A DNA stretch of 64,000 nt from a virus (IMGVR_UViG_3300014204_000184:3476-67475); one strand, 5' to 3'. Positions 16,802 to 38,247 are shown, counted from the first letter of the stretch. The notes: generated by a model from the letters alone, not told the origin. Made by a program: numbers and translations.

Positions 16802-17248
16802 TTACGGAAGGGAAAGTTGGTTCGTCAGCAGGGTCACCAAACCACCCGACTGGATGGCTGCGACATTGATCTGGAAGATACAGGTCGCCGCCGTTCCACA
16901 GTCTCCATCGATGCGGAAGGTTCCCGCGGATCCGTCGTACCTGGTGGCTACCGTTTCCATCCGCCCCCATCCTGCCGTGCCAGTGGCGACGGCTGTGCCC
17001 GCGTATCCGGCCGTTGTCGCCAGTCCTGCGGTTCCGGACGTCGTGGCGCCCGTGTTGACACCCCAGGCGATCCCGGAGATTGTACAAAGAAGGGTGCCGG
17101 CAGTGCCAGCATCCCCGGTTGCCGGCTGGGTTCCGTTATAGATGTTGAGACTGGCCGTGCCCGAAGTTCCGCAGGTACCGGCCATCGCCTCAGCAATCCC
17201 CTTGCTGATGATGTAATTCTTCAAATCCGTGCTGAGTCTCAGCGCCAT
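16802..17248 (-). CDS. Virion protein (148 aa), paralogue of 17259-17711, rich in GTAG/GTSG motifs
   Basis: MALRLSTDLKN... versus MAVRLSTGLRN.... Shared IxxGxQP, AGWxR and DGxxG segments. Confidence 0.75.
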   Translation of the reverse strand: MALRLSTDLKNYIISKGIAEAMAGTCGTSGTASLNIYNGTQPATGDAGTAGTLLCTISGIAWGVNTGATTSGTAGLATTAGYAGTAVATGTAGWGRMETVATRYDGSAGTFRIDGDCGTAATCIFQINVAAIQSGGLVTLLTNQLSLP

Positions 17249-17258
17249 GTCATCCTCC

Positions 17259-17711
17259 TTACTCGGCCGGCTCGGTGACCTTGCTGGTCGACTTGATCGT
17301 AAGCGCGGTATCCTTGGTCAAGGTGGTGTGGGTCAGTTTAAGATCGCCGCCCCCAACCCCCACCGAGCCGTCCAGGCGCTTCTCTGTTACGGAAGATCCG
17401 GCGGTTCCCGCGGTGCCGTAAAGGCGGAACCATCCGGCCACACCGTCGGCCAGAACAAGCCCCTGCCATGCCGGTGTCCCGATCGGAAGTACTCCGGCCA
17501 CCACTCCCGCCGTTCCGAACTTCAGCCCGTCTCCGGCTGCCGTTCCGGACGTCGAGGAGATCCGGACCAACTTGGTCCCCGTTTCCACCGCGTCCGCACT
17601 GACTGGCTGAGACCCGGTGAAGATGTCAAGGAAACCACCCTCCATCAGGTTCTTAAAGGAACCCCCGTCCAGCCGTGCGTTACGCAGCCCCGTAGAGAGT
17701 CTTACTGCCAT
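17259..17711 (-). CDS. Virion protein (150 aa), paralogue of 16802-17248
   Basis: Same shared motifs. Contains GTAGTAG. Confidence 0.75.
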   Translation of the reverse strand: MAVRLSTGLRNARLDGGSFKNLMEGGFLDIFTGSQPVSADAVETGTKLVRISSTSGTAAGDGLKFGTAGVVAGVLPIGTPAWQGLVLADGVAGWFRLYGTAGTAGSSVTEKRLDGSVGVGGGDLKLTHTTLTKDTALTIKSTSKVTEPAE

Positions 17712-21612: not shown

Positions 21613-24600
21613 CTAAACCTCAACCTGCTTCCATAACTCTATTTCTACTATGGTCATAATTCCGTACGGATAAGTGGCGTCTTCCGCGATCGTCCATCGG
21701 TAGTATCGATACGAAACTGTGTTGGCGATATCTCTAGTGACAGAGTTTGAGGTATTTCCGGACACGCTGTCCAATTGTGTCCAACTGGCGTCGTCATCCG
21801 ACCCTTCCAAAATCCATTCTCTTGGGTACTGAGTAGGGCTGCCCCGCACTACGTACCTTGTCAGCGGCCCTTGAGATGAGCCCAAATCGATTTTAATCCA
21901 TTCATCTTGGGTGGTTATATATGCCGGATACCATTGTGTGGTAGCTCCATCGAAAGCTATCCACGGTTGCCCCGAATCGAAAGCCCACGGTTGCCCCGGC
22001 AGGAAATGTGTGCTGCTGGACGTCACTGCGGCAGGACTCGGGGTCGTGGGCCCGGTCATAACCGGCGTGAAATTGGACCACGTCAAGCCCGACGTATCTG
22101 TCCCAAGGTCATCGATGTAAGCGGTCTGAGCGGCCGCCGTCAGGGAGTACAGTTCAACCTCGATCTGCACCACCCCGCTCTGCGTTGGGGTGAAACTGAA
22201 CGACACCTGTTGCCAGGTATCAATGGCCGCGGTGCAGGTAGCCCGAATGTCATAGGGGATCCCGGTGAGCTGAGCGGCCTTGCAAAAGAGGGATATGATG
22301 GCGTTGGTGTCGGGGCGCCTGAGATACGCAGACACAACAACTTCCAGGTTTGCTTGACATGCGATATTCGCAACGGGGAAGCGAAGTGGATCGGTGCTCA
22401 ACGCACTGGCGGTCGAATCCAATTGCCACGCGATCCCACTGGCGGTGTTTCGTACCGTCGCCTGGGACATGAGCGTTCCCAGCTTTGTGTATGTCCGGTG
22501 ATCGTTCACATCGTTTCCGAAATTTGTCATCACGACCTTCGGCCTATAAGAGGTCCCGGGGATTGACACCTTGAGACTTTCGGCGATCGAGAAGTTGTGG
22601 AGGTGGAGGACTCCGGATACGTTGGCATCCAGACGGATGGCGGCGGTCGCATTGACGGTAACGTCGCCGCTGCTGCCCGACATGATCCAATTATCATCGG
22701 CGCCAGCACCGCCCCAATAAACCGCGTAACTATTCCCATTCAGCGAAGGCGCGGCCAGAATCCTGCTGGCAACGGCCGTAAGGAAATAAATGCCATCCGA
22801 GGTGTTGTAGGATGAATCAGAAATCTCTGAAACAATTGCCGTTCCCCAAGAAATAAGAAGGCCTTCTGCATTGTGGTTGGTTTGTCCAATAACAGCTATT
22901 TCAAAAGTGCTTCTTGCGGAAAATGTAATATACACTCCGCTGGAGTTGTTTCCACTTGCCTTTCTAATCAACGTCGCAGATCCTTGTCCATCGAAGTAGA
23001 CTCCATGGCTTCCGTTCCCGCACGCGTTCCCAATATGGCTCACGTTAATTGAGGTTCCTGTTAAGTTGACACCCGGCGACCCACTCCCATTGGCGTTTCT
23101 GATCGACAGAAGCAGCCCCGCTACTCCGGTAACTAGAAAGCCAGTATTTGAGCAATTTGCAATATCTGACATATCTACAATGATTTCCGAACAGCTAGTG
23201 GACAGGAAACCATTGTAGTAGTTAACCGCGTTAACTCCTGAAATAGTCCAATAGTTTTTTGAAGCCCAATGAAGTCCGTAACCGAAGCCATTCAATCCAT
23301 CAAAAAACGTTTCTCCGTCGACGCTCCCGCTGGAGATGTTATAGCCGCCGGCAAGAGTGATGACGTGCCCGGATGTTCCAGAATCCTGTGCCGCCTGGAC
23401 GGCCGCGGTGCTCCCGGCCGCCATCGCGGTTTTGATGGTTTCCCTCTTGTACAGGTTGACGCTTTCTGCCACTCCCATATAGGGGCGGTGATAGTAATCG
23501 ACAAACGGGGTCGATTCGCTGCTCAGCGAAGCCAACGAGATGATTCGACCATCGATGCTCATGATCGGGTACCATCCCTCGCTTGCATAATCGGCACCGG
23601 TGTCGTCGTTGGCACTCTTGGCGAGCGTGTTCTTGGAGATCAACGATTGGAGTGTGAGGGAATCCGCGGCTGTCGAATCATTGCAGGCGATGATGTTGTC
23701 GATGTAGAAGGTCTTGGAGGCCATCGCAATATTCGCGTAGAGGGCCACGCCCTGGACGGTTGCCGATAGCGCCGACCCCTTGTCGACGGTCACATTGGCC
23801 CACCGCCCTGTGCTGGTGAAGGCCGGAAGATCAAAACTCTCGACCTCTGCGGTGCAGTCGGTGTCCGAGTAGAGCTTCAGCTTCATGTCTCCGGCGGCCA
23901 GGGCGGTTGTTTGGTTGCGGAAGCAGAACGATACCTGCCGTCGCCCCGAAAGATTCAGGGAGGCCGGCAATCCGAACTTGGCGATGATACCGGCGCCGGC
24001 ATGCCCGGCTGCGGTGACCACCTTGATCGATCGCAGGTACTCGCGCCACACGGTAGCGTCCGTGGCCGCCGATGTCACGTTGGTCCCTGCGGTCCAGTTG
24101 GATTCGCAGTTGCAGATCGTGGTGGTAACCGCGGTCGTCAGAACAACGCACCGATCGGAAACGTTCTGGAAGGATCCACTCGCCCCCCCGACTCCATTTC
24201 CCACCGAGCCCTCGAGCTCGAAGGTGTTCGCGGACGCGTTCGCCACCACCCACATGCCATTGGCGGCCGTATTCGTGGTATGGCCGATGATCTTGACAAC
24301 CTGGCCGTTGGATAGTCCATGACCGTTCTTGCTGATCACGATGGGGGTCGCGTTAGTGGACGCGGAGATGCTGACGGCGGCCGGAAGGGCGGATCCTCTC
24401 GACGTCGCGCCGACCGTCGACCACTTAGCGTTCTGGCTAAGCGAGGTGGGGTCTGGAGACTTGGCCACCCGGATTGTATCACCGGGAGCAATGCGGGCCG
24501 CGGTCGCGCCAGCGGTCAACGTCTTCCAGGCATCCGCCCAGCTCATTCCTCCGAAGGGGACGGCATCCCCGGTGACATCGGCGCCGGTGAACGACGCCCA

Positions 24601-24843
24601 CAGAGCATCAACGAGGTCGAAGGTGTCGTCGTCGTTGCGGGTGATCTTCCAGGCCGAATTCGCGTAGGCCTGGGTGCATCCGGAAACGGTGATGACGGCA
24701 CCCGTTACGAGGCCATGGCCGACCAATGTCCCCATGACCCTGGTGCCGGCGGGGTTTGAAAAGACGATCCCCGAGATGGTCGCCCGGACCGCGTCAGAGC
24801 CGTTGACATAGTCCATGTAGAAAGTTGCGTTCGTGTACGCCAT
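21613..24843 (-). CDS. Tail fibre/spike (1076 aa): two E1-FCCH-like beta domains, lectin-like domains, beta-helix region, C-terminal discoidin (F5/8 type C)-like domain
   Basis: Two GHGLxxG.V.I.G...ANG.W repeats. GN/N-rich beta-helix periodicity. WIKIDLG...WILEGSDD..SWTQLD...YRYYRW. Confidence 0.8.
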   Translation of the reverse strand: MAYTNATFYMDYVNGSDAVRATISGIVFSNPAGTRVMGTLVGHGLVTGAVITVSGCTQAYANSAWKITRNDDDTFDLVDALWASFTGADVTGDAVPFGGMSWADAWKTLTAGATAARIAPGDTIRVAKSPDPTSLSQNAKWSTVGATSRGSALPAAVSISASTNATPIVISKNGHGLSNGQVVKIIGHTTNTAANGMWVVANASANTFELEGSVGNGVGGASGSFQNVSDRCVVLTTAVTTTICNCESNWTAGTNVTSAATDATVWREYLRSIKVVTAAGHAGAGIIAKFGLPASLNLSGRRQVSFCFRNQTTALAAGDMKLKLYSDTDCTAEVESFDLPAFTSTGRWANVTVDKGSALSATVQGVALYANIAMASKTFYIDNIIACNDSTAADSLTLQSLISKNTLAKSANDDTGADYASEGWYPIMSIDGRIISLASLSSESTPFVDYYHRPYMGVAESVNLYKRETIKTAMAAGSTAAVQAAQDSGTSGHVITLAGGYNISSGSVDGETFFDGLNGFGYGLHWASKNYWTISGVNAVNYYNGFLSTSCSEIIVDMSDIANCSNTGFLVTGVAGLLLSIRNANGSGSPGVNLTGTSINVSHIGNACGNGSHGVYFDGQGSATLIRKASGNNSSGVYITFSARSTFEIAVIGQTNHNAEGLLISWGTAIVSEISDSSYNTSDGIYFLTAVASRILAAPSLNGNSYAVYWGGAGADDNWIMSGSSGDVTVNATAAIRLDANVSGVLHLHNFSIAESLKVSIPGTSYRPKVVMTNFGNDVNDHRTYTKLGTLMSQATVRNTASGIAWQLDSTASALSTDPLRFPVANIACQANLEVVVSAYLRRPDTNAIISLFCKAAQLTGIPYDIRATCTAAIDTWQQVSFSFTPTQSGVVQIEVELYSLTAAAQTAYIDDLGTDTSGLTWSNFTPVMTGPTTPSPAAVTSSSTHFLPGQPWAFDSGQPWIAFDGATTQWYPAYITTQDEWIKIDLGSSQGPLTRYVVRGSPTQYPREWILEGSDDDASWTQLDSVSGNTSNSVTRDIANTVSYRYYRWTIAEDATYPYGIMTIVEIELWKQVEV

Positions 24844-24851
24844 CGTTCAAC

Positions 24852-25784
24852 CTATGCCGTGTACTGGAAGTAAATGGATCCGTCTGCGACACCCGCCGTC
24901 CCCATGGTTGCGGCCGTCCCGTAATAGATGTTGACGGCCCGCCCGTCCGTGCCCGTATAGTCACCGGTCACCGTGAGCGACGCGAAGGTCCCGTCGGTAC
25001 CCTGCCCACCCCCCGAGGTACCAGAGGTGCCCGATGTGCCCGTGGACGATGTCCCGGAGGTACCGTCGGTACCGGAAGTGCCCGCAGGCGAACTGGTCCC
25101 GCTGGTCCCCGAAGTTCCAGAAGTGCCAGGCGTCCCGGTTCCCGAGGTCCCCGAAGTCCCCGAGCTGCCATCAGTCCCCGCCGTCCCCACTCCACTGGTC
25201 CCCGAAGTACCCGAACTGGATGTCCCCGAGGTACCGTCGGTGCCCGATGTGCCCGAAGTTCCCTCTCCCGAAGTACCGGAGGTAACCCCGGTCCCCGAAG
25301 TCCCACTGGTACCGCTGGTTCCCGTGGCAGTGCTTGAGGTCCCGGAGGTGCCGGCGGTTGACGAGGTGCCCGAGGTACCGTCGGTGCCCGATGTGCCCGA
25401 TCCCGATGTCCCGCTGGTGCCATCGGTACCAGACGTTCCACTGGTGGAAATGGAGCTGGTGCCCGAAGTTCCAGAAGTGCCAGGCGTCCCGGTTCCCGAT
25501 GTCCCCGAGGTTCCCGCAGTGGAACTCGTTCCGGACGTGCCGGCGGTAGAAGTGGTCCCGGAAGTTCCCGACGTCGAACTGGTGCCAGAGGTTCCAGCGG
25601 TGGAACTCGTCCCGGAGGTCCCGGCCGTCGAACTGGTGCCAGAGGTACCATCGCTCCCGCTGGTCCCGGAAGTGCCGGAGGCGCCGGCCCCGCTCGGCCA
25701 GATCTCGACATCGAACCGGTCTTCCTCTTCGATCTCGACGTTGAGAGCAGAATCACCGATCTGGACGATGAATTCATAATTCAT
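24852..25784 (-). CDS. Gly-Thr-Ser repeat fibre-like protein (310 aa; ~240 aa of GTS/GTA/GTD triplets)
   Basis: Direct translation. The ATG at 25784 is coupled to the upstream stop codon. Confidence 0.85.
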   Translation of the reverse strand: MNYEFIVQIGDSALNVEIEEEDRFDVEIWPSGAGASGTSGTSGSDGTSGTSSTAGTSGTSSTAGTSGTSSTSGTSGTTSTAGTSGTSSTAGTSGTSGTGTPGTSGTSGTSSISTSGTSGTDGTSGTSGSGTSGTDGTSGTSSTAGTSGTSSTATGTSGTSGTSGTGVTSGTSGEGTSGTSGTDGTSGTSSSGTSGTSGVGTAGTDGSSGTSGTSGTGTPGTSGTSGTSGTSSPAGTSGTDGTSGTSSTGTSGTSGTSGGGQGTDGTFASLTVTGDYTGTDGRAVNIYYGTAATMGTAGVADGSIYFQYTA

Positions 25785-25785
25785 C

Positions 25786-26157
25786 TCACGCCCCCGTTCC
25801 GGCCGTTCCGTAGACCCTCGTCGCATCCCACTCGATGCTCATGGTTCCCTTGGCGATCGTGTAGACATTGTTGAGGTTGGTCAGTGCCTGGATGTCGTAG
25901 AAGTAGTCGCCGGGTTCAATGTTGAAGGTATCGGTGGGAACGATGCCGATGGTCGTTTTCCCATTGGTGGGATCAATGTGCGAGGTCACGACCTTCTGAA
26001 GGACTGCCGCGGAATCGAGATCGGTGATGTTGGACTTGATCGTCAGATAAAAGGTCCAGCCGGTGATGTCACGGACGGAACCATCCGATTTGTTCGTCAA
26101 CGTCAGGCCGAAGGTATGGCTATCTCCGCGGGTCAGGGTAAGATTGATGTTGCCCAT
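25786..26157 (-). CDS. BppU-like baseplate/fibre-anchoring Ig-fold protein (123 aa) ending in ...VYGTAGTGA
   Basis: RGDS.TF.LTL...DITGWT..LTIK...G...I...DT..IEPG.Y.YDIQ pattern. Confidence 0.7.
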   Translation of the reverse strand: MGNINLTLTRGDSHTFGLTLTNKSDGSVRDITGWTFYLTIKSNITDLDSAAVLQKVVTSHIDPTNGKTTIGIVPTDTFNIEPGDYFYDIQALTNLNNVYTIAKGTMSIEWDATRVYGTAGTGA

Positions 26158-26213: not shown

Positions 26214-26453
26214 CTACGTGCCGGACGTGCCCGACGTTCCACTGGTCCCTTCTCCTGTCGTCCCCGAGCTGCCACTGGTGCCGGCGGTGCCGGAGGTGGC
26301 CGTGGTCCCGGAGGTGCCCGAGGTACTGCCGGTGCCTGATGTCGCGGTCGTTCCCGACGTGCCGGCGGTGCCGGAGTCTCCCGATGTCGAAGCCGCCTCA
26401 GCCGCCGCGGCTTCAGCCTCTTCTTCAAACTTTCTCATTCGTTTGATCGCCAT
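26214..26453 (-). CDS. Small GTS-repeat protein (79 aa, MAIKRMRKFEEEA...)
   Basis: SD GGGAGG before ATG 26453. C-terminal part of track ORF 26214..26852. Confidence 0.75.
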   Translation of the reverse strand: MAIKRMRKFEEEAEAAAAEAASTSGDSGTAGTSGTTATSGTGSTSGTSGTTATSGTAGTSGSSGTTGEGTSGTSGTSGT

Positions 26454-26467
26454 GGGTTCATCCTCCC

Positions 26468-26716
26468 TTACGCCGGGGTAGTCCCGGAGGTTCCGCTGGT
26501 GCCGGAGGTGCCGCCGGAAGTACCGCTGGTGCCGTCGGCCCCGCTGGTCCCCGAAGTGGTGGCGCCGGTCGTCCCACTCGTGCCTGCGGTTGCGCTGGTC
26601 CCGGAGGTGGTCGCACCGGTCGTCCCACTGGTCCCATTGCTGCCGGATGTTCCCGAGGACCAATGCAGACCTGCGATCACGTCTTCTTCGAACTGCTGAA
26701 GTCTCTTGATTGCCAT
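26468..26716 (-). CDS. Small GTS-repeat protein (82 aa, MAIKRLQQFEEDV...), paralogue of 26214-26453
   Basis: Shared MAIKR..xFEE N-terminus plus GTSG/ATTSG repeats. Confidence 0.75.
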   Translation of the reverse strand: MAIKRLQQFEEDVIAGLHWSSGTSGSNGTSGTTGATTSGTSATAGTSGTTGATTSGTSGADGTSGTSGGTSGTSGTSGTTPA

Positions 26717-26727
26717 CGCCTTCTCCT

Positions 26728-27438
26728 TTAAGACGCGAACGGACGGAAGCGGAAGGAAGCTCCCCGGGCGATCTGACGTCTGGTCTGCTGATCTCTCCAG
26801 GACACCGGAGGGCCGAAATAGGTCTCAAATTGGCCCTCATGGTATTTGGCAAGTTCGAGGTTCAGCGTATCCGAATCCGGGTTCTCGTAGGCGATCTTCT
26901 GAGCCCAATGTAGCATGTGCTCGGAATAGAACTCGGGTTCCGTCAGTAAGGTAAAATCGGCCAGGGGAAGCCGCTTGACCACCAGCCGCGCCGTCGTTGC
27001 GAAAGTTGGTTTGTAAACGATCAGAAGCTCGTTTGCGATTTCCGTGAGAAATGCCCACGGTGTCCCCTCCATGTTCTCCCAATCCGCAATCGTCTTGTCT
27101 AACTCATCGCGGGTTTTCTGCTGGAGGGGAACGGAAAAGCCGGCGGTGCCCGCGGCGATCGCGGCGGCATCCGACGGCAACTTGACTCTCATGACCTGGA
27201 GAACCAAAGGGCTGAGCGTGTATGCGCCGACGCCCGTGGTCAATCCGACCGAACAGATACCCCGGGTTGACGCGTCGACGGTCGTAGTCGAATCGGAAAT
27301 GGCCAGGGTTCTCCGGACCGCTTCCCGCTCCGCTTCATTGGCCGCCGCCAGAAGAAAAGAGGGTGACCAAAGATAGGGTTCAGCCTTGTCCCCCAGCTTC
27401 TCCCGCAGGGACCGTACTATTTCCTTTCCCGTTGGCAT
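26728..27438 (-). CDS. Head-tail adaptor/connector-like protein (236 aa)
   Basis: ...YLWS..FL...ANEAERE pattern and position after the MCP cluster. Confidence 0.65.
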   Translation of the reverse strand: MPTGKEIVRSLREKLGDKAEPYLWSPSFLLAAANEAEREAVRRTLAISDSTTTVDASTRGICSVGLTTGVGAYTLSPLVLQVMRVKLPSDAAAIAAGTAGFSVPLQQKTRDELDKTIADWENMEGTPWAFLTEIANELLIVYKPTFATTARLVVKRLPLADFTLLTEPEFYSEHMLHWAQKIAYENPDSDTLNLELAKYHEGQFETYFGPPVSWRDQQTRRQIARGASFRFRPFAS

Positions 27439-27910
27439 CGACAGTCTCCTTCTTCCTCTGGTGCGCTCTCATGTGGCTGAGGTAGGCCAGCTTGCTGTCA
27501 AAAGGCCTCTCACAGATCTCGCACTGGAAAGCCCCGATCACGTCGGCCGGGACCTGATTGACGTTTTCCTTCACGACGGTGAAGTTGAAGCGCGGAAGAT
27601 GTCTGACCGTCTCAACGCCGGTTTCGGTGTCTTTCTCTACGATCGTAACGATCCGCGTCCGGAGCATCTTGATCACCGGACGGGGAACGTCCACCTCCTT
27701 GTTGTACTGGACGAGGAACGGGAATCCGTTCAGGCCGATGAACTGGCCTTCCTTGTACGACTCCCTGGTCTCGTGGAGGATGATCCGATCGCGGATATGG
27801 CCGCGGGGGTGAGTGAAGAATCCCTCGGCATCCGTTCCGTCTTCCTTCTTCGGCGTCGCCGAGGTGAGCGCGTCGGTATTCTGCCGTCTTTCTTTATCGT
27901 ACTTCGCCAT
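27380..27910 (-). CDS. Capsid-cluster conserved protein with appended C2H2 zinc finger
   Basis: FIGLNG..FLV...EVDVP motif. CEICERPFDSKLAYLSHMRAH fits C-x2-C-x12-H-x3-H. Confidence 0.7.
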   Translation of the reverse strand: MAKYDKERRQNTDALTSATPKKEDGTDAEGFFTHPRGHIRDRIILHETRESYKEGQFIGLNGFPFLVQYNKEVDVPRPVIKMLRTRIVTIVEKDTETGVETVRHLPRFNFTVVKENVNQVPADVIGAFQCEICERPFDSKLAYLSHMRAHQRKKETVDANGKGNSTVPAGEAGGQG

Positions 27911-28008
27911 CGTTACCCTCCTGCTCCTTTTCAAAGTGGACGCGGTTGGGGAAAGCCATCGCCGGAGCAGTTAAGCTGTTCTCTCCCCGCCCGCGCCACA
28001 AGGTCAAA

Positions 28009-28656
28009 TTACTGGTCGGCCGGCATCGCAAGCAGGTCGACGTATGTGGCGAACGTCCCCATGGTGCCGGTACCGGCCACCCAGGCGGTCGTCGGGGCCT
28101 GGTGGAAGACGTAGCCGACCGCGCAGCAGTTGTCGGGCAGATCCGGAAGCTTCGCAGCCGCAGCCGTCAGAGCCTCATTACCCTTGGCGACCAGTCCCGA
28201 GGTCGTGGCGAGCGCTGCCGTACCGCAGTAGACCAGATACTTGCAGTACGTTGCGGTACCCTGAGTGCCCAACGACGCCGGCCACAGGATCTCATCCAGG
28301 GCTGCCTGCCCGTAGACGAGTCCATTGATGGTGTAGGCGAACGGGTTGGCGATCTTGAATTTGGTCACCGAAGATCCCACCGCAAGCCCCGCCAGGGTGC
28401 CGGGAAGTGTCCGGGTCGTCCCTGCCGTGCCTCCCGGGAGGATATAGGACATCAACGCCTTCAGGGCCGCCCGCTGGCTCGCATGGTTGAAAGCCCCGTA
28501 AATCTTGTTTTTGCTGGTGTCCACGGATTTGGGCTGGTCGGAGAACAGCGGCACCGCCATCCCCATCACGTAGAGGGAATCGGTCTCGTAGCCGAAAGCC
28601 TTCAGCACGAACCCGATCAGACAAACCACGAACACGACGAACATCGACTTCTTCAT
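28009..28656 (-). CDS. Capsid decoration/cement-like protein (215 aa) with hydrophobic signal-like N-terminus
   Basis: Directly downstream of the MCP. G/T/A-rich beta composition. The real start could be internal. Confidence 0.55.
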   Translation of the reverse strand: MKKSMFVVFVVCLIGFVLKAFGYETDSLYVMGMAVPLFSDQPKSVDTSKNKIYGAFNHASQRAALKALMSYILPGGTAGTTRTLPGTLAGLAVGSSVTKFKIANPFAYTINGLVYGQAALDEILWPASLGTQGTATYCKYLVYCGTAALATTSGLVAKGNEALTAAAAKLPDLPDNCCAVGYVFHQAPTTAWVAGTGTMGTFATYVDLLAMPADQ

Positions 28657-29773: not shown

Positions 29774-30805
29774 TTACAGGCCCCGGGTCGCCTCTTCAAA
29801 GGCCCCATCGAAGTCGTTCTTCCCGGCTCGCGTCACAGGAATCACTGGTTTCTTTTTCACCAGGACGACGCTCGGCGTCTTTGGCTTCGGAGGAGGGTCG
29901 GGGACTGCGGTTGCGCGTCCGGTGGACGCTTTGAATTCGTCCATCAAGGTGATGACGTCTTCGGTCTTCCCCTTGTCGAACCATTCCTGATATTTTTCTC
30001 TCAGGCCTGCCGGTCGTCCGGCGATCCATTTCTCGACCGAACCGTCGTCGCGGAGCTTCTCGAAATCTCCATGCTTCGCGCGAATGGCGGCTTCGTGCTT
30101 CTCACGCCCGTATTCCATAGCCACTGTCAGAATCGGCAACAATGAGGCCGACAAGGCTTGAAGCCTTGCCGCATGCCGTTCATCCAGTGCCTTCAGAGCC
30201 AGCTTGAGTTTCATCCCCTCGTACTTGGAAACCTCCTCGTACTCGGTATCGTAGGTGGCCATGGCTTGCTTTTCATCCTCTGTGAGGGAAGCCAGCACCT
30301 TCTCGATATCATCGAGAACATCGGAGTCGGGGGTTACTGCCTCTTTGTGGGGCGTTTGCGCAGTCCCGGCGGTACCCGCCGTCCCAGCCGCTGCCTCCAG
30401 TGTCCGGATACGTTCCTGGTATTCCCGTTCCTTCAGCTCCCATTCTTCCGGGACGACCTCGGCGGCGGTCCCTGCCGTTCCTTCCGTCCCGGCGGTTCCG
30501 GCGTCATCGACTTCTGCCGCCGTGCCTGCCGTGCCGTCTTCCAGGGGGAGTTCTTCGAAATCGGTCTCACCAGCAATCCCGGAGGTTCCTGAAGGGGAAG
30601 CCTGGGTGTCCTGCGCCGATATTACAGACAGATCGCGGTCCGCGTCTGCCTTGTCCTGCGGATTGGTCTCAGTGGTTGCCTCGGCGAATGCGGCGGAATA
30701 CTCATCGTCCGCGTCCGTACCTGTTTCTATCCCAGCCGTTCCCAAATCACCCGTTGTCCCGGATGTTCCGCTGGGGAGGTCATCTGCTCCTGATGTTCCC
30801 GCCAT
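29774..30805 (-). CDS. Capsid scaffolding protein (343 aa) with GTAG/GTSG-rich acidic N-terminus
   Basis: Lies between portal and MCP. Acidic coiled-coil, ends ...DFDGAFEEA. Confidence 0.8.
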   Translation of the reverse strand: MAGTSGADDLPSGTSGTTGDLGTAGIETGTDADDEYSAAFAEATTETNPQDKADADRDLSVISAQDTQASPSGTSGIAGETDFEELPLEDGTAGTAAEVDDAGTAGTEGTAGTAAEVVPEEWELKEREYQERIRTLEAAAGTAGTAGTAQTPHKEAVTPDSDVLDDIEKVLASLTEDEKQAMATYDTEYEEVSKYEGMKLKLALKALDERHAARLQALSASLLPILTVAMEYGREKHEAAIRAKHGDFEKLRDDGSVEKWIAGRPAGLREKYQEWFDKGKTEDVITLMDEFKASTGRATAVPDPPPKPKTPSVVLVKKKPVIPVTRAGKNDFDGAFEEATRGL

Positions 30806-31057: not shown

Positions 31058-31326
31058 ACATTTCTCGTTTCGAGGTAACCCTTCAGGCGCTTCAGCTCTT
31101 TAAGTCCGCCCTGATTGGCCAGAACTTCCTCGTGGGTTGCGGTGTCGTTGTCCTTGCGCAGCCTATCGATGAGCACGTTGCACAGATCCGTGACGGCCTT
31201 CAACTCCGAACTTCTTTTGGGAAGTGCATCGATCGCCCGGTTCAAGGGCTCGTTGGGATCAGCGACCGGAACTTGGTTTTTTTCCATCAGGCTTCTTCTC
31301 CTTTCCGACCTGTTTTGCTTGGGCAT
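31054..31326 (-). CDS. Small head-assembly protein downstream of the portal
   Basis: Conserved position. Helical ...QGGLKELKRL. Confidence 0.65.
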   Translation of the reverse strand: MPKQNRSERRRSLMEKNQVPVADPNEPLNRAIDALPKRSSELKAVTDLCNVLIDRLRKDNDTATHEEVLANQGGLKELKRLKGYLETRNV

Positions 31327-33358
31327 ATTCTTTGGTTGCCTTCGCCCGTTTCAGCATAGCGTCTGCGGCGAGGTTCTCTTGTTCCAACGGGCTGGGGGGT
31401 TCCTTATCCAGTCCCTGTTCGGATTTTACCGCATCCACGTTGACCTTCTTTCCCTTGGCCAGGGCGCCGGCCGCCTGCGCTTTCCGGTAGGCGATATCGG
31501 CCCTTTTCTCCTCTTTGACCAGGTAGTCGATCTCGGGATCTGTGATGCTCTTGACATACTCGCGGGCTTCCTCTTCCGTCCGCAGTCGGATGGGGAGGTC
31601 ATGGGTACGGACAAACTCCTCCAGGAAATCACGCCGAGGGATATAGATCCAGTCCTCGTCGGTGAGGGTGGTCTTGAACTGGCTCATCGCCTGCATCCGG
31701 ACCTCTTTGCCGACCAACGAGCTCACCCCTTTGGGCACTACTTTATAGTCTCCCTTGATGTTGGGATCTTCATTGTTGTCCATGTTCCAATGATAGACGC
31801 CCCCGATAACGTTTTCGGTAAAGCTGTCGAAGTTGCGAACGATGTCTTTGACCGACATCGTCAGCATCCCGAACCGCATCGATGCCCCGCCGGCCGTCTC
31901 GTTGGTCTTGACGGGGCTCGAAATCATCCAGGTCGGCAGGCATGTTTCCTCGTCGGCGATCTCCCGGAAGAGGCTGATAATGGTGAGGAGCTCGGGGATG
32001 TGGGAGTCGAACTGCACGGCACGCACGGCCGGCCACTGGCCCTCTACCCCACGCCCCTCCCGGTACCAGATCTTCATGGGGTGGTTCTCGGTGATGTCTT
32101 GCCCAGGTGTCAGCAGGGAGGTGTTGATCTCTGTATTCGGGCCCGCGACGACGGCGCCGTTGTCCAGGACCATCCTGCAGCCGCCCCCAATCGCCATCTG
32201 GCTGTGGCGCATGACGCGCGGGAGACCTTCGCCGTAGATGCTGGTGTCGTCTTTCTCGTAATAGAAGACCTTGTAAATGCTAGATGCTCCTGGGGCAACG
32301 TCGGCCATGATGATTTTATTGCCCAGGAACCACGCCTGGATCTCGTAGGTGGCGCTGGGATCGTCCACGGTGATTCCGACCTGGTTCAGATCGACGGCAT
32401 CCAGCAGACCCCAATATTCGAAGACCTCGTACCGTTTGTCTCGATCGATGGTCCCCCCGGAAACCCCACTACTGGCTGCGGGGACGAGGCCATTCGACGC
32501 TTCCTGTGCGCCGGCTTCGGCCTCGATCGACTGGAGGTCTTGTTCCCACCCCTTCCAGGTGCAATCGCCGTTAACGTGATCCGCGATATACTCTTTGATG
32601 TATGCGGTGTCGAAATCTTCCCGCATTGCTAGGTTGATGAGATCGTGGCGGTTCATGACGTGGCGCTCGTAGCTGCCAGTCGACTCCCGCAGCTCCGTCA
32701 CGCTCATGTCCGGATACCAGTCCCAAATGCGAACATGGCCCAGGTACGGCACCCTCACATCCTTCACGTCCTCTTCGAAATCTCCACCGTCCGTCTGTTT
32801 CCATCGGCGCTTACTGGACTTGTTTGTCAGGGGCCCTTTGAGGACCCCGGTCCCAAAATCGACACCCGACCGCAATACCTTCTTGGCCTCAAGGGTGTAA
32901 TGGATCTCGGCCAACTGGTCATCGATCACCCGGCGCATCCGATCGTTGGTCTCCTTGCACCACTTTTGGATGGCGACAAAAAGCTCGTCATCGGAGAACG
33001 GCCCACCCCCCTTGCTCATAGCCAGAGCCGTGGCGATCTCCTTGACCACCGTTTTTGCCAGTTTGGGATCCGGGGTCGGCTCCATGTCGAAGTTGCGATC
33101 GGTATCCGGAAAGAGCATCTCATGCAGCCGAGACAACACCATGTTGCAATACTTACGGGTCATCTTTGGGTAAACCTTGGATCGATTCTTATCCAGGATG
33201 ACCCCGGGATCGTAGAGGCCGCGGATCTGCCTGATATCCTCGATCCATTCCAGCTCTTTTGACCGACGCTTACCCTCGTTTATGGTGAAGTTGTTGTGCA
33301 GCCGGATACCAAAATTGCTCCGGAAGTCTTTATCCTTGAGGATCGCTTCGATGTTCAT
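31259..33358 (-). CDS. Portal protein (699 aa)
   Basis: RSKVYPKMTR...RLHEMLFP, GTGVLKGP, DWYPD, IYGEG pattern. Lies between terminase and scaffold. Confidence 0.9.
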   Translation of the reverse strand: MNIEAILKDKDFRSNFGIRLHNNFTINEGKRRSKELEWIEDIRQIRGLYDPGVILDKNRSKVYPKMTRKYCNMVLSRLHEMLFPDTDRNFDMEPTPDPKLAKTVVKEIATALAMSKGGGPFSDDELFVAIQKWCKETNDRMRRVIDDQLAEIHYTLEAKKVLRSGVDFGTGVLKGPLTNKSSKRRWKQTDGGDFEEDVKDVRVPYLGHVRIWDWYPDMSVTELRESTGSYERHVMNRHDLINLAMREDFDTAYIKEYIADHVNGDCTWKGWEQDLQSIEAEAGAQEASNGLVPAASSGVSGGTIDRDKRYEVFEYWGLLDAVDLNQVGITVDDPSATYEIQAWFLGNKIIMADVAPGASSIYKVFYYEKDDTSIYGEGLPRVMRHSQMAIGGGCRMVLDNGAVVAGPNTEINTSLLTPGQDITENHPMKIWYREGRGVEGQWPAVRAVQFDSHIPELLTIISLFREIADEETCLPTWMISSPVKTNETAGGASMRFGMLTMSVKDIVRNFDSFTENVIGGVYHWNMDNNEDPNIKGDYKVVPKGVSSLVGKEVRMQAMSQFKTTLTDEDWIYIPRRDFLEEFVRTHDLPIRLRTEEEAREYVKSITDPEIDYLVKEEKRADIAYRKAQAAGALAKGKKVNVDAVKSEQGLDKEPPSPLEQENLAADAMLKRAKATKEYAQAKQVGKEKKPDGKKPSSGR

Positions 33359-33382
33359 ATGTCCCCTCCTTCTACCGCTCCT

Positions 33383-36300
33383 TTACAACAGCGCCCTTAT
33401 GGCATCCTTCACCATGTCCGGAGTGATTTCTTTGGTGCATTCGTACTGCACCACCGGCCGGCCTTCCCACTCTTTGCGCGCGCACCAGTCCCATCCTCGA
33501 TCGAAGGGGACGTTGGTGTCGTTGAAACACCCATGACAGACATTTGTGTTGATGACCCGGCTGTACGTCTGGAACTCCTCCCACGGTTCGGAGAAGCCGG
33601 AGATCAACACCACCGGAATTCCGAGGGACCAGGCCAGCCAGCTCGGCCCATGGCCCAACCCGATGTAGAAGGCGGCCCCGGACAGAACCGCGCAGGTATC
33701 CTCGATCTTGCGCTTGTTGAACTTCTTGACGTTCTTCAACGTCGTCGGCTCCTTGCTGATGGAAACGACCTCGTAGCCGAGGCTGATGCAGTAGTCCACG
33801 ATCTCCTGCCACGCCCCCGGGCGGTTCCAGAGCTTGGGCTGCATGGTGGAGAACTCGGACAGACACACGTACTTGCCGGCCGGCCGGGGGCCGTCAAACT
33901 TCTTCAGCCGTGCGCGCCGCGGGACATAATCGAGGCCCAGGATATCGGCGGCAACCTTCTGCAGCGGAGTCACACGCCAGTTCTCGACATTCCGGTCCGG
34001 ATCGTTGTCGAAGCAGCCGACCTCATAAGATGCGTAGAGATGATCGAGGCCGGTCCCGGGAGCCACGATTTCCAGCTCCGGATAATCGAGGATCTCCCTC
34101 CACCAGCACGAACAGATGACATGACACTCATGCTTCTTCTGGAACTCCAGGACGTAGGGGATCCAGGCCAGTGTATCGCCGAGGGCCTTCGACGCGATGC
34201 TGATCATCACCCGCTTGCCCTTCAGGTCCAGATGATGGCGGAAAATCTCCTTACCGTCCAGCTCGGCCCGGACGGTCCAGTCGCGGAAATACTTCTTTTT
34301 CGCTCGCGCCCACATCCCAGGCTTCTGTATCAGCTCGTACTCATCGGGATCGTCGGGAGTCCCAAAGACCACGCGGTATTGCCGGGGCGAGAGACCATTG
34401 ATCTTCAGGTATGGTCCGTCGACAAAGTGGATATCGAAGGTGTCGGCGGGCCATGTCTTCGGATCCCCCGACTGGAATCGATGATCGCCGACGATGTCCA
34501 TGTGGCAAATCTTGTCTTCGTGATCTTTCCAGTTTGGGTTATCGAGCTCGTAGATGTCCGCGAGCGCCATGATCCCGCCGGACATGAGATCGGGGCAACG
34601 GGTGCTGATGCAGACGGGCTTTTCCGCCATCGCCACCTTGCACAGAAACTCCTCGAGATCCACTTCGACATCGTAGGCGAGGAAGTGGACACGGTCCCAC
34701 GCGCCTTCGCAGAACCTGATGACGTCGCGCATGATGCTGGGCGAGTCCTTGGCGTATAGGTAGTGGTCGGCCTTATCGAAGATGGTCGGGGGGATCGCAT
34801 ACGGGGAGGCGATGAGGGCCTTGTAGGCCATGGCGTGGACCTGGGTGATGGTTTCCTGGAGGGTCACCAGCCTCTCGGCACTGTCCGGATTCCCCGTGAT
34901 CACGAAGATGCTCTTCTCTTTCTTGCGCAGTTTCGGATCCCCGCGGCCGGTGCGGTCGATCTCGTAGCCGGCGTGGAAGGCCGCGGCAACCAGTTCGGTA
35001 TCCTTGTCTCCGGGAGGTGTCACGTTGGCGGCCGGCGCCGCCTCTTTGGTCACCATGGCTTGCTTGGTAGGCAGGACGACCAGTTGTACTCGTTTCTCGG
35101 CGAAGTAGTCGTCTATGGCCTTCCTGGCCCCCTGGGTGGTCGGGAACCCGTAGTCATCGAAGACCATGATGCCGCCGACAGCCATCCGCGGCCAGATGTG
35201 CCGGCAGCAGTCCAAGGTGCTCTGGTAGAGATCGACGTCGATGTGGGCAAAGGCGATGAGTCCATCCGGTGCTTCATGGAACACGGCGGGGAACCAACCC
35301 TTGTGGTAATAGACGATGTCATCGTGGCCGATGAGTTTCCGTGCCTCCTCGACGGTGGCGGCGAACTCCCCCTTCCGGTGGTGATCAAGGGGACCAGGTT
35401 CCGGCAGGCCTTCGAAGGAGTCGAAGAGATCGAGAACGCGCCCGGAATCCGCACATACATTGGCCAGCATGGCGGCCGTATGGCCCCGATAGACCCCGCA
35501 CTCCCATACCTCACCAGGAACCTTCAATGCCTGGAGTAGGGAGGTGTAAAGGACTTTGCAGCGGTCCCGGTCTACCAGACCACCCATGGCCGCCGGCGCG
35601 AAGTGTTTCTCGAAGAGGTCCGGGTTCCCATCGTTGGGAAGATCGATTTTACAGGACCAATCCGGATTCACGATGCGAACGTCCTCAGCTACTCCGTGCT
35701 CCGGAAGGATGACATCCCCGGGCTGGGGGACGTAAAGATTCGGATCCTCCAAAGGTCGGAGCAGCTCCAAGGCTCTTTCTGCGGCCATGTCCCAGGAGAA
35801 GTTGGTGATGATGGGGACGGCGGCCGCCAATGCCGCTTGCCGGTAGTAGGGATAGTTGGCGGTGAGCTCGCGCAGCCACCAGCGATAGCTGGACCAGTTC
35901 GGCTCCCCCCACTCTCCCGGGCAGTCCGGTACCCCGTAGACGTTGAAGGGCTTGATCAATTTGTCCAGGGGGACGTGGCAGGCATCCCGGCAGAACTCTG
36001 TATTCCCGGACCAGTCGTGGCAGACCACAGGAATCCCACAGGCCATGCCCTCGATGATGGGCAACCCCCATCCCTCTCCCCGGGACACATTGAGCAGTAC
36101 GTGACCCTCTTGCAGGTAACGGACGTACTCCTCGAGGGGCGGATGGTGGACCACGGTGATGCGGGGGTCATCGAACCCGTAGGCCTTCAGGCGCTCTTCG
36201 GTCGTCGTGTACTGGTCGACGGGGAAGGCGTTGTCGGCAGAAATGAGCAGCTCGTGATCCGAGTAGGAAGGCGGGAAGGCCTCCATCCAGTTCTTGATCA

Positions 36301-36832
36301 TCTCCCGGGTGCACTTTCGATCCTCCCAGCGGCCGAAAATCAAGAATCGAAACCGCCTGGGATCGGCGTGACCCAGCACCGGGAAGGATCCTGGATGGAA
36401 GATGCCCGGATCGACGCCTTCCGGGACTACGCGCACGAAATCGGCATAGTCGATCGGAATGGACACGTCTGCTTCCTTCAACTGCTCGATCGTGCAATTT
36501 CGCTGCCACTGCGAAGGAACCCATAGCTGATCCAGGTGGCAGAGGTTGTCGATGAAGGACTGAGGGTACCTGGTAGACTCCCAGGCCACAAATCCTATCT
36601 TCTTCCCCCTGATGCCCCGGGATTGCTCCATGACGGCGGCGAATTCCTGGACTCCGACGAAAAAGAGATGGGTGCCTTCCGTCGGTACTCGAGCATCGCG
36701 GCCGAAGGTGTGCCGGATGACCTCAACCCCCTTGCGCTCCAGTGCGGCGGTAAAATTGGTCGCAAACTGCGCCCCCCCTCCCTGATACCCAAACGATCCG
36801 TGTGCGGTTATCTGCATATCTGCTCCTTTCAA
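33383..36832 (-). CDS. Multi-domain glycosylation enzyme (1149 aa): GT4 glycosyltransferase + TylF/MycF-type O-methyltransferase + Aah/TibC-like protein O-heptosyltransferase
   Basis: GT4: SRGEGWGLPIIEGMACGIPVV. TylF: WECGVYRG...FDSFEGLP...KGWF...HIDVDLYQS...GGIMVFDDY. TibC-like: DLKGKRV.ISIASKALGDTLAWIPY...LQKVAADILGL...GPSWLAW..G.PVVLISGF...CHGCFN...WC...EC. Confidence 0.85.
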   Translation of the reverse strand: MKGADMQITAHGSFGYQGGGAQFATNFTAALERKGVEVIRHTFGRDARVPTEGTHLFFVGVQEFAAVMEQSRGIRGKKIGFVAWESTRYPQSFIDNLCHLDQLWVPSQWQRNCTIEQLKEADVSIPIDYADFVRVVPEGVDPGIFHPGSFPVLGHADPRRFRFLIFGRWEDRKCTREMIKNWMEAFPPSYSDHELLISADNAFPVDQYTTTEERLKAYGFDDPRITVVHHPPLEEYVRYLQEGHVLLNVSRGEGWGLPIIEGMACGIPVVCHDWSGNTEFCRDACHVPLDKLIKPFNVYGVPDCPGEWGEPNWSSYRWWLRELTANYPYYRQAALAAAVPIITNFSWDMAAERALELLRPLEDPNLYVPQPGDVILPEHGVAEDVRIVNPDWSCKIDLPNDGNPDLFEKHFAPAAMGGLVDRDRCKVLYTSLLQALKVPGEVWECGVYRGHTAAMLANVCADSGRVLDLFDSFEGLPEPGPLDHHRKGEFAATVEEARKLIGHDDIVYYHKGWFPAVFHEAPDGLIAFAHIDVDLYQSTLDCCRHIWPRMAVGGIMVFDDYGFPTTQGARKAIDDYFAEKRVQLVVLPTKQAMVTKEAAPAANVTPPGDKDTELVAAAFHAGYEIDRTGRGDPKLRKKEKSIFVITGNPDSAERLVTLQETITQVHAMAYKALIASPYAIPPTIFDKADHYLYAKDSPSIMRDVIRFCEGAWDRVHFLAYDVEVDLEEFLCKVAMAEKPVCISTRCPDLMSGGIMALADIYELDNPNWKDHEDKICHMDIVGDHRFQSGDPKTWPADTFDIHFVDGPYLKINGLSPRQYRVVFGTPDDPDEYELIQKPGMWARAKKKYFRDWTVRAELDGKEIFRHHLDLKGKRVMISIASKALGDTLAWIPYVLEFQKKHECHVICSCWWREILDYPELEIVAPGTGLDHLYASYEVGCFDNDPDRNVENWRVTPLQKVAADILGLDYVPRRARLKKFDGPRPAGKYVCLSEFSTMQPKLWNRPGAWQEIVDYCISLGYEVVSISKEPTTLKNVKKFNKRKIEDTCAVLSGAAFYIGLGHGPSWLAWSLGIPVVLISGFSEPWEEFQTYSRVINTNVCHGCFNDTNVPFDRGWDWCARKEWEGRPVVQYECTKEITPDMVKDAIRALL

Positions 36833-38247
36833 TAACCTGCGATACTGGAAATGTGCTTATACTGCGGGATCATCGATAGCGTCTTGCGCATCTGCTGCTC
36901 TCGCTCTTCCCGCCCCTTGTTATCTCCCAGGAACATACAGAAGTATTCAAACGCGTTAGCGATGTGGGAATAGTAGTTTTTGTCCGGTGTCTCAGAGGCT
37001 TCGCCGTTGGGGAAGACCTTGAATCGGTACCCGGAGCTCAGCGCCTTCCGAAGGATGTCTTGCTCGGGATCGATGACCACGGCCTGTTCTCCGAACACAG
37101 ACCGGGAGAGCTGAGATTCCACGGCACGCTGCCGGGCAACAAGATTGTTAGAAGGGGCTTGCTCGATCAGTTCCAAACCGTTCTCCTTGAAGATGTCATA
37201 GCAGGTCTTTTCGTCCGTCTGGACGCGCTGGGTTCCAGCGGGATCGCCAAACCCGATGATCCTGTAACCGAAGAACTCCTGCTTCAGCATGGGAAGGATC
37301 TGGTTGATCAGGAACTTCTCCAGGCCCATTCCGTCCGAACTTATGGCCCGGTAGATCATGACGCGCGATGTCGGCAGCATCTGACCGATGACGACAGAGG
37401 GGTTCAGACCGAAGTCCCAGCCCGTGATCAGGGGGAGACCTTTGATCGGATGCAAGGTGTTCGGACTGACGTGGGTGTTGTCGTTGTAGCTGGTCCCGTA
37501 GACCGGTTTCCCCTCGACCACGTACCCGTAGAGGCCGTGCGCGTAGACGTTAATGAATTGATCGTCCTTGCCCTTGATCAGATTTTGGTAATAGCCGCGG
37601 GGAAGATTGGGGATGTTCTCGGCGTGCGGGGAGAGACCGGACGGCTGCTTCCAGAGCTGGGCGTTGGAGGGTCTGGTCTTCTCGAAGTACTTGTAAAAGG
37701 GGTTGTTCTCGTCCGGGGGGTTCGTATCCATGATGATCCCCATCCAGGTCGCTTCAACCTCGCGCTTGGGTGGGTAGCGGCCGACACGGGTGTCCAGGAC
37801 GTCGAAGATAATCTTTGGGATCTCCCGATACTCGTTCAGCCAGGCGCCGGTGATTTCCAGGGATAGGAGGTTGGCCAACTGATCAGGTCTATCGAGGGCC
37901 CGGAACATCAACTGGATCTCTACGCCCGGGAAGGCGGTGATCGTATAGTTGTGGTCGGTCTTATTCCAGTCGCCGTAGAGGTCGGGGGGAAGCCAGTCAT
38001 GGACGGTTTTGATCGTGGTGTCTTCGAGTTGCCGGTATGTATTCCGGACAATAGCCCACCGCGTTCTCCTGATCCCATCCAACATCGGGGCCTGTTCATG
38101 GGCTCGGCGTGCCAGTTCGACCACACAACCCGATGACTTCCCGGATCCAACCGGGCCCATCAGGCCGCGAATACGTTTGTTGCTGAGGGCGAATTTTCGG
38201 ACGGTGGGGACGTCGTCGTAGTTAAACTCGATCTGGCGAGTTGTCAA
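36829..38247 (-). CDS. terL: Terminase large subunit (472 aa)
   Basis: Walker A GPVGSGKS, LEITGAWLNE, DTNPP, GWDFG nuclease Asp, HIANA. Confidence 0.92.
   Translation of the reverse strand: MTTRQIEFNYDDVPTVRKFALSNKRIRGLMGPVGSGKSSGCVVELARRAHEQAPMLDGIRRTRWAIVRNTYRQLEDTTIKTVHDWLPPDLYGDWNKTDHNYTITAFPGVEIQLMFRALDRPDQLANLLSLEITGAWLNEYREIPKIIFDVLDTRVGRYPPKREVEATWMGIIMDTNPPDENNPFYKYFEKTRPSNAQLWKQPSGLSPHAENIPNLPRGYYQNLIKGKDDQFINVYAHGLYGYVVEGKPVYGTSYNDNTHVSPNTLHPIKGLPLITGWDFGLNPSVVIGQMLPTSRVMIYRAISSDGMGLEKFLINQILPMLKQEFFGYRIIGFGDPAGTQRVQTDEKTCYDIFKENGLELIEQAPSNNLVARQRAVESQLSRSVFGEQAVVIDPEQDILRKALSSGYRFKVFPNGEASETPDKNYYSHIANAFEYFCMFLGDNKGREEREQQMRKTLSMIPQYKHISSIAGY

Follow-up and report, generated by a model that had tools for sequence, protein, structure and literature searches.

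The closest described relatives of the system treated here are the glycosyltransferases TibC and Aah of Escherichia coli, which belong to the bacterial autotransporter heptosyltransferase (BAHT) family, transferring heptose from ADP-heptose to Ser, and are paired with TibA and AIDA-I, respectively. In TibC, Asp110 is the catalytic base, Thr226 and Lys230 lie at the beta-phosphate and Trp305 at the sugar, Arg286 contacts adenine N1 and is associated with specificity for adenosine diphosphate (ADP), an R286A mutant being inactive, and four cysteines (Cys339, 342, 358 and 370) coordinate Fe in an iron-finger (eLife 2014, PMC4358343). A thumb containing Phe265 and Val266, described as strongly conserved among BAHT enzymes, joins TibC dimers into a dodecamer, and the acceptor sites are serines in ..NSGG.. 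and ..TSAA.. contexts, not threonines (PMC4358343). Here we describe a gene in a 64,000-nucleotide stretch of viral DNA (IMGVR_UViG_3300014204_000184:3476-67475), hereafter called the window, which covers the greater part of an uncultured virus record of 67,475 bp with a completeness estimate of 98%. The gene is a single open reading frame (ORF) without interruption at 33383-36832 on the minus strand, between the terminase large subunit gene (terL) and the portal gene, and its product consists of a GT4 glycosyltransferase, a TylF-type O-methyltransferase, a GT-A-like domain and a TibC/Aah-like (BAHT) domain. On the evidence of sequence comparison we propose, at a probability of about 0.6, that this is a cytoplasmic enzyme, made late, that would O-glycosylate the phage's own virion proteins during assembly.

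The BAHT domain forms the C-terminal part of the enzyme (33386..34462, minus strand; residues ~791-1149, all residue numbers being those of the 1149-aa frame P0001, which starts at a TTG codon) and is built from an N-terminal beta-barrel, a GT-B catalytic core and an inserted iron-finger with four Cys. It scored 236.4 bits against TIGR04414, for which the NCBI equivalog cut-off is 200 (residues 841-1147, profile positions 51-373 of 374), and its sequence matched that of the TibC structure 4RAP with E = 4e-46. The predicted structure, with a predicted local distance difference test (pLDDT) score above 90, was matched by Foldseek to 4RAP and 4RB4 with E = 1e-30 and template modelling (TM) scores of 0.83-0.86, over 382-386 columns of 30-31% identity. 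The catalytic Asp110 of TibC corresponds to D886, Thr226, Lys230 and Trp305 align to identical residues, and the cysteines of the pattern CHGC...WC...EC align with Cys339, 342, 358 and 370; across 78 relatives, each of these positions is either invariant or conserved to at least 90%.

In a maximum-likelihood tree of 57 BAHT domains, the canonical enzymes (Aah/AIDA-I type) and those of Negativicutes formed a clade with 100/100 support, and the domain of the window fell into the other clade, of 39 rows, which is set apart by a branch with 96/79 support. A Gly-Thr-Ser-rich (GTS) ORF is present in the same locus in 31 of these 39 rows, and the GTS label changes eight times on the tree compared with 18.2 times in shuffles, none of 500 shuffles being as low. 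Judged by sequence, then, the domain is a member of the BAHT superfamily but not an Aah/TibC orthologue. An initial interpretation made from the DNA alone (the sequence-only reading) had called it Aah/TibC-like, a description that the TIGR04414 score and the four cysteines bear out, but the missing thumb, the missing autotransporter and the separate clade speak against orthology.

The presumed acceptors carry the motif GT[SA]G, for which expectations were taken from shuffled proteins. The set of 29 late proteins (9,303 aa) contains 67 motifs in nine proteins, compared with 2.9 expected; a 79-aa protein (26214-26453), outside this expectation, adds eight more and brings the count to 75 in ten late proteins. 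The early-strand proteins (6,480 aa) contain one motif (0.3 expected), and a protein of more than 3149 aa at the start of the window (3,149 aa scored) contains none (0.2 expected). The 75 motifs are written with 58 distinct 12-mers in which both TCN and AGY serine codons are used, and this points to selection on the protein sequence. A repeat at the DNA level, considered as the source of the motif, is ruled out by the same diversity of 12-mers. The repeats have no continuous Gly-X-Y register and, as far as their sequence tells, look more like a mucin-type tract than a collagen helix.

All the candidate acceptor genes located here are on the minus strand. The candidate main acceptor is a 310-aa protein composed almost wholly of Gly-Thr-Ser-type repeats (24852..25784; 38 motifs), whose gene is directly upstream of that of the 1076-aa tail fibre (21613-24843), which itself contains one motif. 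In each of two tandem paralogues of ~80 aa (26214-26453 and 26468-26716), a GT[SA]G tail, with eight and nine motifs respectively, comes after a head reading MAIKR..FEE, and the protein at the scaffold position, in the portal-capsid interval (29774..30805), has nine motifs, all in its acidic N-terminal half. Motifs are also found in two paralogous virion structural proteins of phrog_3758 (16802..17711; four and three motifs, with a loop YGTAGTAGSS), in the phrog_1084 protein (25786..26157; C-terminus ...YGTAGTGA), in an adaptor-like phrog_399 protein (single or few motifs) and in a 215-aa protein encoded right after the major capsid gene (28009-28656; one motif). The last of these begins with a hydrophobic, signal-like segment, MKKSMFVVFVVCLIGFVLKAFG; its orthologues in the relatives L013 and L214 show no hydrophobic start in the frames compared.

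The motif covaries with the enzyme among related phages. Nine viral loci and two contigs most likely mis-binned into metagenome-assembled genomes (MAGs) encode BAHT-type domains 50-55% identical to that of the window, and these loci contain 2-74 GT[SA]G motifs each. In two of them (L012 and L013) the enzyme gene likewise occupies the terL-portal interval, and the orthologues of the scaffold-position protein carry the motif; in seven, the enzyme gene is ahead of the phrog_3758 gene, in the tail module, so a place beside the head genes is not diagnostic by itself. None of the close relatives has a TylF domain. In the enzyme-bearing relatives, small proteins headed by MAI..L.EDL have a motif tail laid out as in the ~80-aa pair of the window, the repeat protein encoded next after the phrog_1084 gene is also motif-bearing, and the phrog_1084 orthologues of L214, L018 and L020 end in ...PGTAGT... 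The positions of the motif thus recur in loops and tails of orthologues that are only about 35-70% identical, among them the phrog_3758 loop, kept as YGT[AG]GT.G[ST]S in phages with the enzyme and replaced by a different sequence in Pseudomonas phage Rollin, which is without it. Rollin, one of the closest relatives in culture, has a like gene order, with terL adjoining the portal gene, and the same GC content (58.6%) as the window phage, to which its terL, portal and capsid proteins are 37%, 34% and 40% identical, respectively; its late proteins contain one GT[SA]G in 9,357 aa. Pseudoalteromonas phage vB_Pun_Y3, another of these cultured relatives, which also is without the enzyme and shares the gene order with terL adjoining the portal gene, contains none in 6,186 aa. 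Co-occurrence with GTS repeats in related phages, proposed in the sequence-only reading as a check, is therefore seen both in the motif-bearing orthologues and in the near-absence of the motif from the enzyme-less phages.

As a side observation, three contigs with phage structural genes and an enzyme of 50-55% identity, L214 (JAHEYD010000005.1, 68,332 bp, binned as Nitrosotalea), L213 and L212, were assigned to archaeal, deltaproteobacterial and Dehalococcoidia MAGs. They are most likely mis-binned phage contigs and provide no host information.

Linkage to Gly-Thr-Ser repeat genes extends through a wider family. A HMMER pass over protein clusters gave 928 representatives at E = 1e-30 or better; among the best 150 of the 928, nearly all are multi-domain proteins of 500-2000 aa, in which the TibC-like domain is most often joined to GT4 (confirmed in all seven relatives checked), and at least 588 contig stretches in IMG/VR encode a TibC-like domain. 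In a sample of 80 viral loci, with a repeat ORF defined as one with at least eight motifs within 10 kb, 48 have such an ORF near the enzyme, and the partner is often a Gly-Thr-Ser collagen-like protein of 1000-2700 aa that starts 1-2 kb away. The (GTS)3 string occurs in at least 120 stretches of IMG/VR, a figure that has no base rate, and whole-genome controls and enzyme-less relatives were used instead: in four out of five viral records, which are 138-318 kb long (three complete), all the listed (GTS)3 matches are within 13 kb of the enzyme gene. In the reverse direction, six of 80 loci picked by the repeat pattern contain the domain, a suggestive figure that has no denominator. The pairing of enzyme and repeat is also found in 25 of 78 bacterial loci, mostly of methanotrophs, Arenicellales and Burkholderiales. 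The tailoring genes vary among the relatives, which have other types of methyltransferase, or genes for the synthesis of 3'-phosphoadenosine 5'-phosphosulfate (PAPS) together with a sulfotransferase, and such variability beside GTS fibres fits the decoration of a glycan.

Several of these relatives have features of their own. In viral contig L008 (6600-17100), the gene for the GT4 and TibC-like protein is flanked by genes for an adenosine 5'-phosphosulfate (APS) kinase, an ATP-sulfurylase-/cytidylyltransferase-like protein and a sulfotransferase, which suggests that the glycan is sulfated rather than methylated; after these comes a fibre of 1592 aa, one part of which is Gly-Thr-Ser collagen-like and another repetitive, rich in Gly/Asn/Ser and similar in appearance to a beta-helix. 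The metagenomic relative P0008 (1375 aa; 48% identity in the TibC-like part) contains an intein with a LAGLIDADG-like domain inside its GT4 domain. In the record of Microcystis phage Mel-JY01 (PP395634.1; L002), positions 2-3049 of the plus strand form a stop-free Gly-Thr/Ser-Ser collagen-like frame of ~1000 aa with 80 GT[SA]G motifs, and the coding sequences annotated there instead (1-651 and 739-2298) run on the opposite strand and yield VPEVPE-type repeats when translated; the record was probably annotated on the wrong strand.

The remaining three domains of the enzyme were assigned as follows. The N-terminal domain (35738..36817, minus strand; residues ~6-365) is a GT4 glycosyltransferase of the retaining GT-B type with the EX7E motif E-GWGLPII-E. 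It exceeds the Pfam cut-offs of PF13692 (Glyco_trans_1_4; 40.3 vs 27), PF20706 (31.9 vs 26), PF00534 (30.3 vs 26.4) and PF13524 (28.6 vs 25), matches phrog_2170 with E = 9e-21, and in the AlphaFold2 model (pLDDT above 90) has a fold matching GlgM, MshA and PimA with E = 1e-10 to 1e-14. It is followed by a TylF/MycF/NovP-type O-methyltransferase dependent on S-adenosylmethionine (SAM) (35033..35695, minus strand; residues ~380-600). PF05711 scores 77.9 bits here against a cut-off of 23 (residues 435-583), with profile positions 88-249 of 264 covered, and PDB entries 5I10 and 4CDZ and NovP match with E = 1e-15 to 1e-18; in the alignment with these three, the glycine-rich SAM motif ECGVYRG and the acidic motifs IDVDLYQST (within HIDVDLYQST) and FDDYG are intact, and we take their residues to be those that bind SAM and metal. 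Over residues 364-603 the pLDDT of the full-length model is below 50, because none of the aligned relatives carries the methyltransferase insertion; disorder of this segment was considered, and the low pLDDT is not evidence for it, the methyltransferase being assigned from the sequence matches. A TylF-type methyltransferase was found in none of the other 87 viral BAHT loci checked.

The middle domain (34463..35017, minus strand; residues ~606-790) appears to have a nucleotide-diphospho-sugar-transferase (GT-A-like) fold. It is predicted well, as an alpha/beta structure, and VIA-align gave Z = 10-11.6 with both sugar nucleotidyltransferases and GT-A glycosyltransferases; in Foldseek it has a weak match to glycogenin alone (E = 1e-3), and it matches no Pfam family. 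Ten relatives share an IFVI..P......TL.ETI.Q strand-helix and an invariant D-x-E-x-D in this domain, of which the window lacks two segments present in the relatives, ~60 aa in total. The GT4 and TylF calls of the sequence-only reading are thus confirmed by the profile search that it had suggested, and all three of its named domains are present, but the fourth, at residues ~606-790, had been missed.

In the mechanism that we favour, the TibC-like domain would transfer a nucleotide-activated sugar onto Ser, possibly Thr, in Gly-Thr-Ser/Ala-Gly motifs, the GT4 domain and perhaps the GT-A-like domain would add further sugars, and the TylF-type domain would methylate a sugar hydroxyl. The acceptors would be the 310-aa fibre-associated protein, the two ~80-aa tailed proteins, the scaffold-position protein and, in at least five further structural proteins, loops or tails. 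The TibC-like domain is the likely initiator because it is the only module with homologues that act directly on protein Ser; by analogy with GtfA, which acts on serine-rich adhesins, it is equally possible that GT4 would initiate instead, and the order of attachment, extension and methyl-capping is a guess. Of the virion glycosylation claimed in the sequence-only reading, the acceptors suggested by comparative evidence and the place in the operon speak for the claim; they do not support the heptose, the order of steps or the use of the head-gene position as a diagnostic.

The donor was considered separately. No SIS_2 (GmhA-type) or CTP_transf_like (HldE-C-type) match, such as would indicate a heptose pathway, was found in the phage genome, and whatever sugar serves as donor must therefore be supplied by the host, as had been supposed from the start. 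Small rfaE-domain-II-like genes are present within 6 kb of the enzyme in five of 37 other viral contigs (those behind L051, L052, L053, L071 and L075), at distances from the TibC-like gene of 22 bp to 5.6 kb; in three contigs they adjoin it. Their products (131-143 aa; E = 1e-25 to 1e-30, all below the family cut-off) could activate the donor sugar. The cytidylyltransferase-like neighbours, which belong to the PAPS/sulfotransferase set in L008 and are below the cut-off elsewhere, do not settle the donor.

Several observations weigh against virion glycosylation, or against parts of the mechanism. The position of TibC Arg286 is occupied by Thr in the window and by T, A, I or R across ten members of the branch, so the donor may differ from that of TibC; as the adenine-reading Arg is replaced and variable, heptose as the sugar transferred, claimed in the sequence-only reading, is not supported, and ADP-heptose, suggested by homology, is a reasonable candidate donor. 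The beta-hairpin thumb (TibC Phe265/Val266) is deleted, leaving a gap of ~10 residues in the window and its closest relatives, and the threading of a beta-helix through the TibC ring therefore cannot apply as such. The GT-A-like domain, being shortened, may be inactive. A true scaffold leaves the capsid, so the role that glycosylation of the scaffold-position protein would have is unclear. In the wider family, 32 of the 80 viral loci have no repeat ORF within 10 kb, and one complete relative (the L015 contig, with terminal repeats) has the enzyme together with scattered motifs only and no (GTS)2 run.

A broader form of the proposal, which we advance tentatively from the sequence comparisons, is that Gly-Thr-Ser/Ala-Gly is a sequon read by one enzyme, which would make the locus a general O-glycosylation system for the whole virion. 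On the same tentative footing, this branch of the TibC family might have switched from beta-helix adhesins to flexible or collagen-like tracts, with no dodecamer and possibly with a donor other than ADP-heptose. The narrower alternative is that only the Gly-Thr-Ser-rich proteins (24852-25784 and the two of ~80 aa) are acceptors, the single motifs of the capsid-proximal, adaptor and phrog_3758 proteins being unused. The family-wide linkage is indeed to long repeat genes, as beside the collagen-like fibres of large phages, and the single-motif proteins are weakly above their own shuffles, 3-50 of 200 shuffles having reached the observed count. However, the recurrence of the motif positions in the diverged orthologues of enzyme-bearing phages, missing in Rollin, and the nine motifs of the scaffold-position protein, for which shuffles give an expectation of 0.06, make so strict a limit rather unlikely.

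Virion glycosylation must also be weighed against an enzyme that builds or modifies a non-protein glycan, such as a methylated oligo- or polysaccharide or the lipopolysaccharide (LPS) or capsule of the host, for superinfection exclusion or receptor blocking, with the motifs as unrelated linkers. GT4 and TylF-type enzymes usually act on lipid, polysaccharide or natural-product sugars, the GT4 part resembles, among many GT4 enzymes, a methylmannose-polysaccharide mannosyltransferase, and the TibC-like fold derives from the GT9 LPS heptosyltransferases (Pfam Glyco_transf_9 matches are found in relatives); moreover, the gene looks inserted between terL and the portal gene, which adjoin in Rollin and vB_Pun_Y3, and this is a habit of accessory genes. 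We nevertheless regard this explanation as improbable: the enzyme lacks both a membrane segment and a signal peptide, it retains the iron-finger and beta-barrel that are hallmarks of the protein-modifying family, its gene is within the structural module in all the relatives examined, and the covariation of enzyme and motif and the linkage to repeat genes would be left unexplained.

That host proteins such as adhesins or envelope proteins are the targets, glycosylated for takeover or exclusion, whether late in infection in the cytoplasm or by an enzyme that had been packaged and injected, appears very unlikely. Canonical BAHTs do modify bacterial surface adhesins, and a place beside the portal and head genes would suit a packaged protein; however, no autotransporter-like partner was found in the window or the relatives, the domain lies outside the autotransporter-coupled clade, nothing suggests packaging, and the strong association is with repeat proteins encoded by the phages themselves. 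Modification of phage DNA around packaging, by base glycosylation and methylation, is extremely unlikely even though the gene adjoins terL and phage DNA glucosyltransferases also have the GT-B fold, since no thymidylate-synthase-like hydroxymethylase was found in the genome, the closest structures and families modify proteins and sugars rather than DNA, and the gene is in the tail module of relatives.

The position of the gene itself is compatible with late virion glycosylation. The probable start is the ATG at 36817-36815, 5 nt past a Shine-Dalgarno box AAGGAG (36823..36828, minus strand, read from 36828 to 36823), giving a coding sequence of 1144 aa at 33383..36817 on the minus strand, with its stop codon at 33383-33385. 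The TTG at 36832, taken as the start in the sequence-only reading, is five codons upstream of this ATG and abuts the terL stop codon (TGA, 36829-36831), and the database protein P0004 (1144 aa), identical to the enzyme, begins at Met6 of the 1149-aa frame; the frame of 1149 codons is thus real and uninterrupted, but the protein is likely to have 1144 aa. Directly upstream is terL (36829..38247, minus strand; phrog_2, E = 1e-23), after a gap of 11 nt, and 24 nt separate the enzyme stop codon from the ATG of the portal gene (31259..33358, minus strand; phrog_332, E = 1e-31), which has its own Shine-Dalgarno box. These matches agree with the earlier placement of an ORF with glycosylation domains between terL and portal. 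The next genes past the portal gene encode the protein at the scaffold position and the major capsid protein (phrog_1357, E = 1e-54). No signal resembling a promoter or a terminator rose above chance around the enzyme gene, which by its place in the gene order is part of the head-assembly operon and is predicted to be expressed late. A 2620-nt contig from a separate groundwater study matches 34052-36671 at every base and takes in each of the three domain junctions, so the fusion is not an assembly artefact; contigs of that study also reproduce 33190-34002 with no differences. A megablast search of the enzyme region against cultured phages gave no match.

Elsewhere in the window, the frame of more than 3149 aa occupies 1-9447 on the minus strand and continues past the window start; it contains no GT[SA]G motif. 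At a similar position, vB_Pun_Y3 encodes a 3421-aa protein annotated with a DdrB-like ParB superfamily domain. In the structural module, a 184-aa protein (27380-27934, minus strand) contains a C2H2-type zinc-finger-like sequence, FQCEICERPFDSKLAYLSHMRAHQRK.

To our knowledge, glycosylation of virions has been shown experimentally for only a few mycobacteriophages, in which it is carried out by unrelated enzymes. In the present data, hundreds of environmental phages encode, beside hydroxyl-rich repeat proteins, a relative of an adhesin-glycosylating enzyme that is itself well understood. If virion glycosylation is confirmed, the TibC family would gain a new class of substrate, glycosylated phage proteins could be predicted from sequence by a sequon, the stabilising or shielding of proline-free Gly-Thr-Ser fibres would become easier to explain, and tagged proteins could be O-glycosylated in bacteria with a portable tool consisting of one gene. 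The small phage of the window is a compact test case, in which a single gene, short candidate acceptors (80 to 310 aa) and a simple motif come together. Particular to it are a podovirus-type genome with the terL-portal insertion, the TylF module, the dispersed motif and enzyme-less relatives that serve as natural controls, and it offers experiments a good point of entry, but is not a system of a new kind.

Compared with TibC-TibA and Aah-AIDA-I, the C-terminal 359 aa of the phage enzyme share the whole fold of TibC, with an identity to TibC and Aah of ~31-38%, and the chemistry is likely to be the same: repetitive proteins would be O-glycosylated on Ser residues that neighbour Gly. However, the canonical enzymes are encoded by stand-alone coding sequences of 392-410 aa followed by an autotransporter/AIDA-I gene in plasmid loci, whereas the phage domain is part of a 1144-aa fusion and no autotransporter-like partner was found among the window proteins. 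The acceptors of TibC and Aah are strand-loop-strand motifs of a beta-helix, while those presumed for the phage are flexible or collagen-like GT[SA]G tracts. In other bacterial systems, GtfA/GtfB together with GlyE-type enzymes glycosylate serine-rich-repeat adhesins, a GT4 enzyme starting the dense Ser/Thr O-glycosylation and a GT-A (GT8) enzyme extending it, and the hydroxyl-rich collagen-like repeats of Bacillus BclA carry methylated sugars. These systems are cellular and secretion-coupled, and the phage enzyme shares with them the family fold only, with no specific sequence relationship.

Among phages, the capsid and tail proteins of mycobacteriophages Che8, Corndog and Myrna are glycosylated (Freeman et al. 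2023, Cell Host Microbe 31:1216, as cited in PMC12363180). The likeness is that phage-encoded glycosyltransferases act on the phage's own virion proteins, which here is proposed from genes alone; in addition, Che8 gp108, annotated as a glycosyltransferase, is ~30% identical to residues 380-574 of the phage enzyme, its methyltransferase-like part. The mycobacteriophage systems differ in having actinobacterial hosts, separate genes at the genome end and no TibC-like domain, and we know of no GT[SA]G motif reported for them. A search of the open-access literature yielded no report of TibC-like enzymes in phages, of a pairing of such enzymes with Gly-Thr-Ser repeats or of glycosylated collagen-like fibres in phages, and nothing relevant on Mel-JY01. 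A counterpart in a cultured phage is WWT39291 of Mel-JY01, which belongs to the same enzyme branch, is a fusion of GT4 and a TibC-like domain, and is paired with a Gly-Thr-Ser repeat, its gene lying two genes downstream of the collagen-like frame. From the other viral BAHT loci, the window phage is distinguished by its 67-kb podovirus-type genome, the added TylF module and the dispersal of the motif over ten structural proteins.

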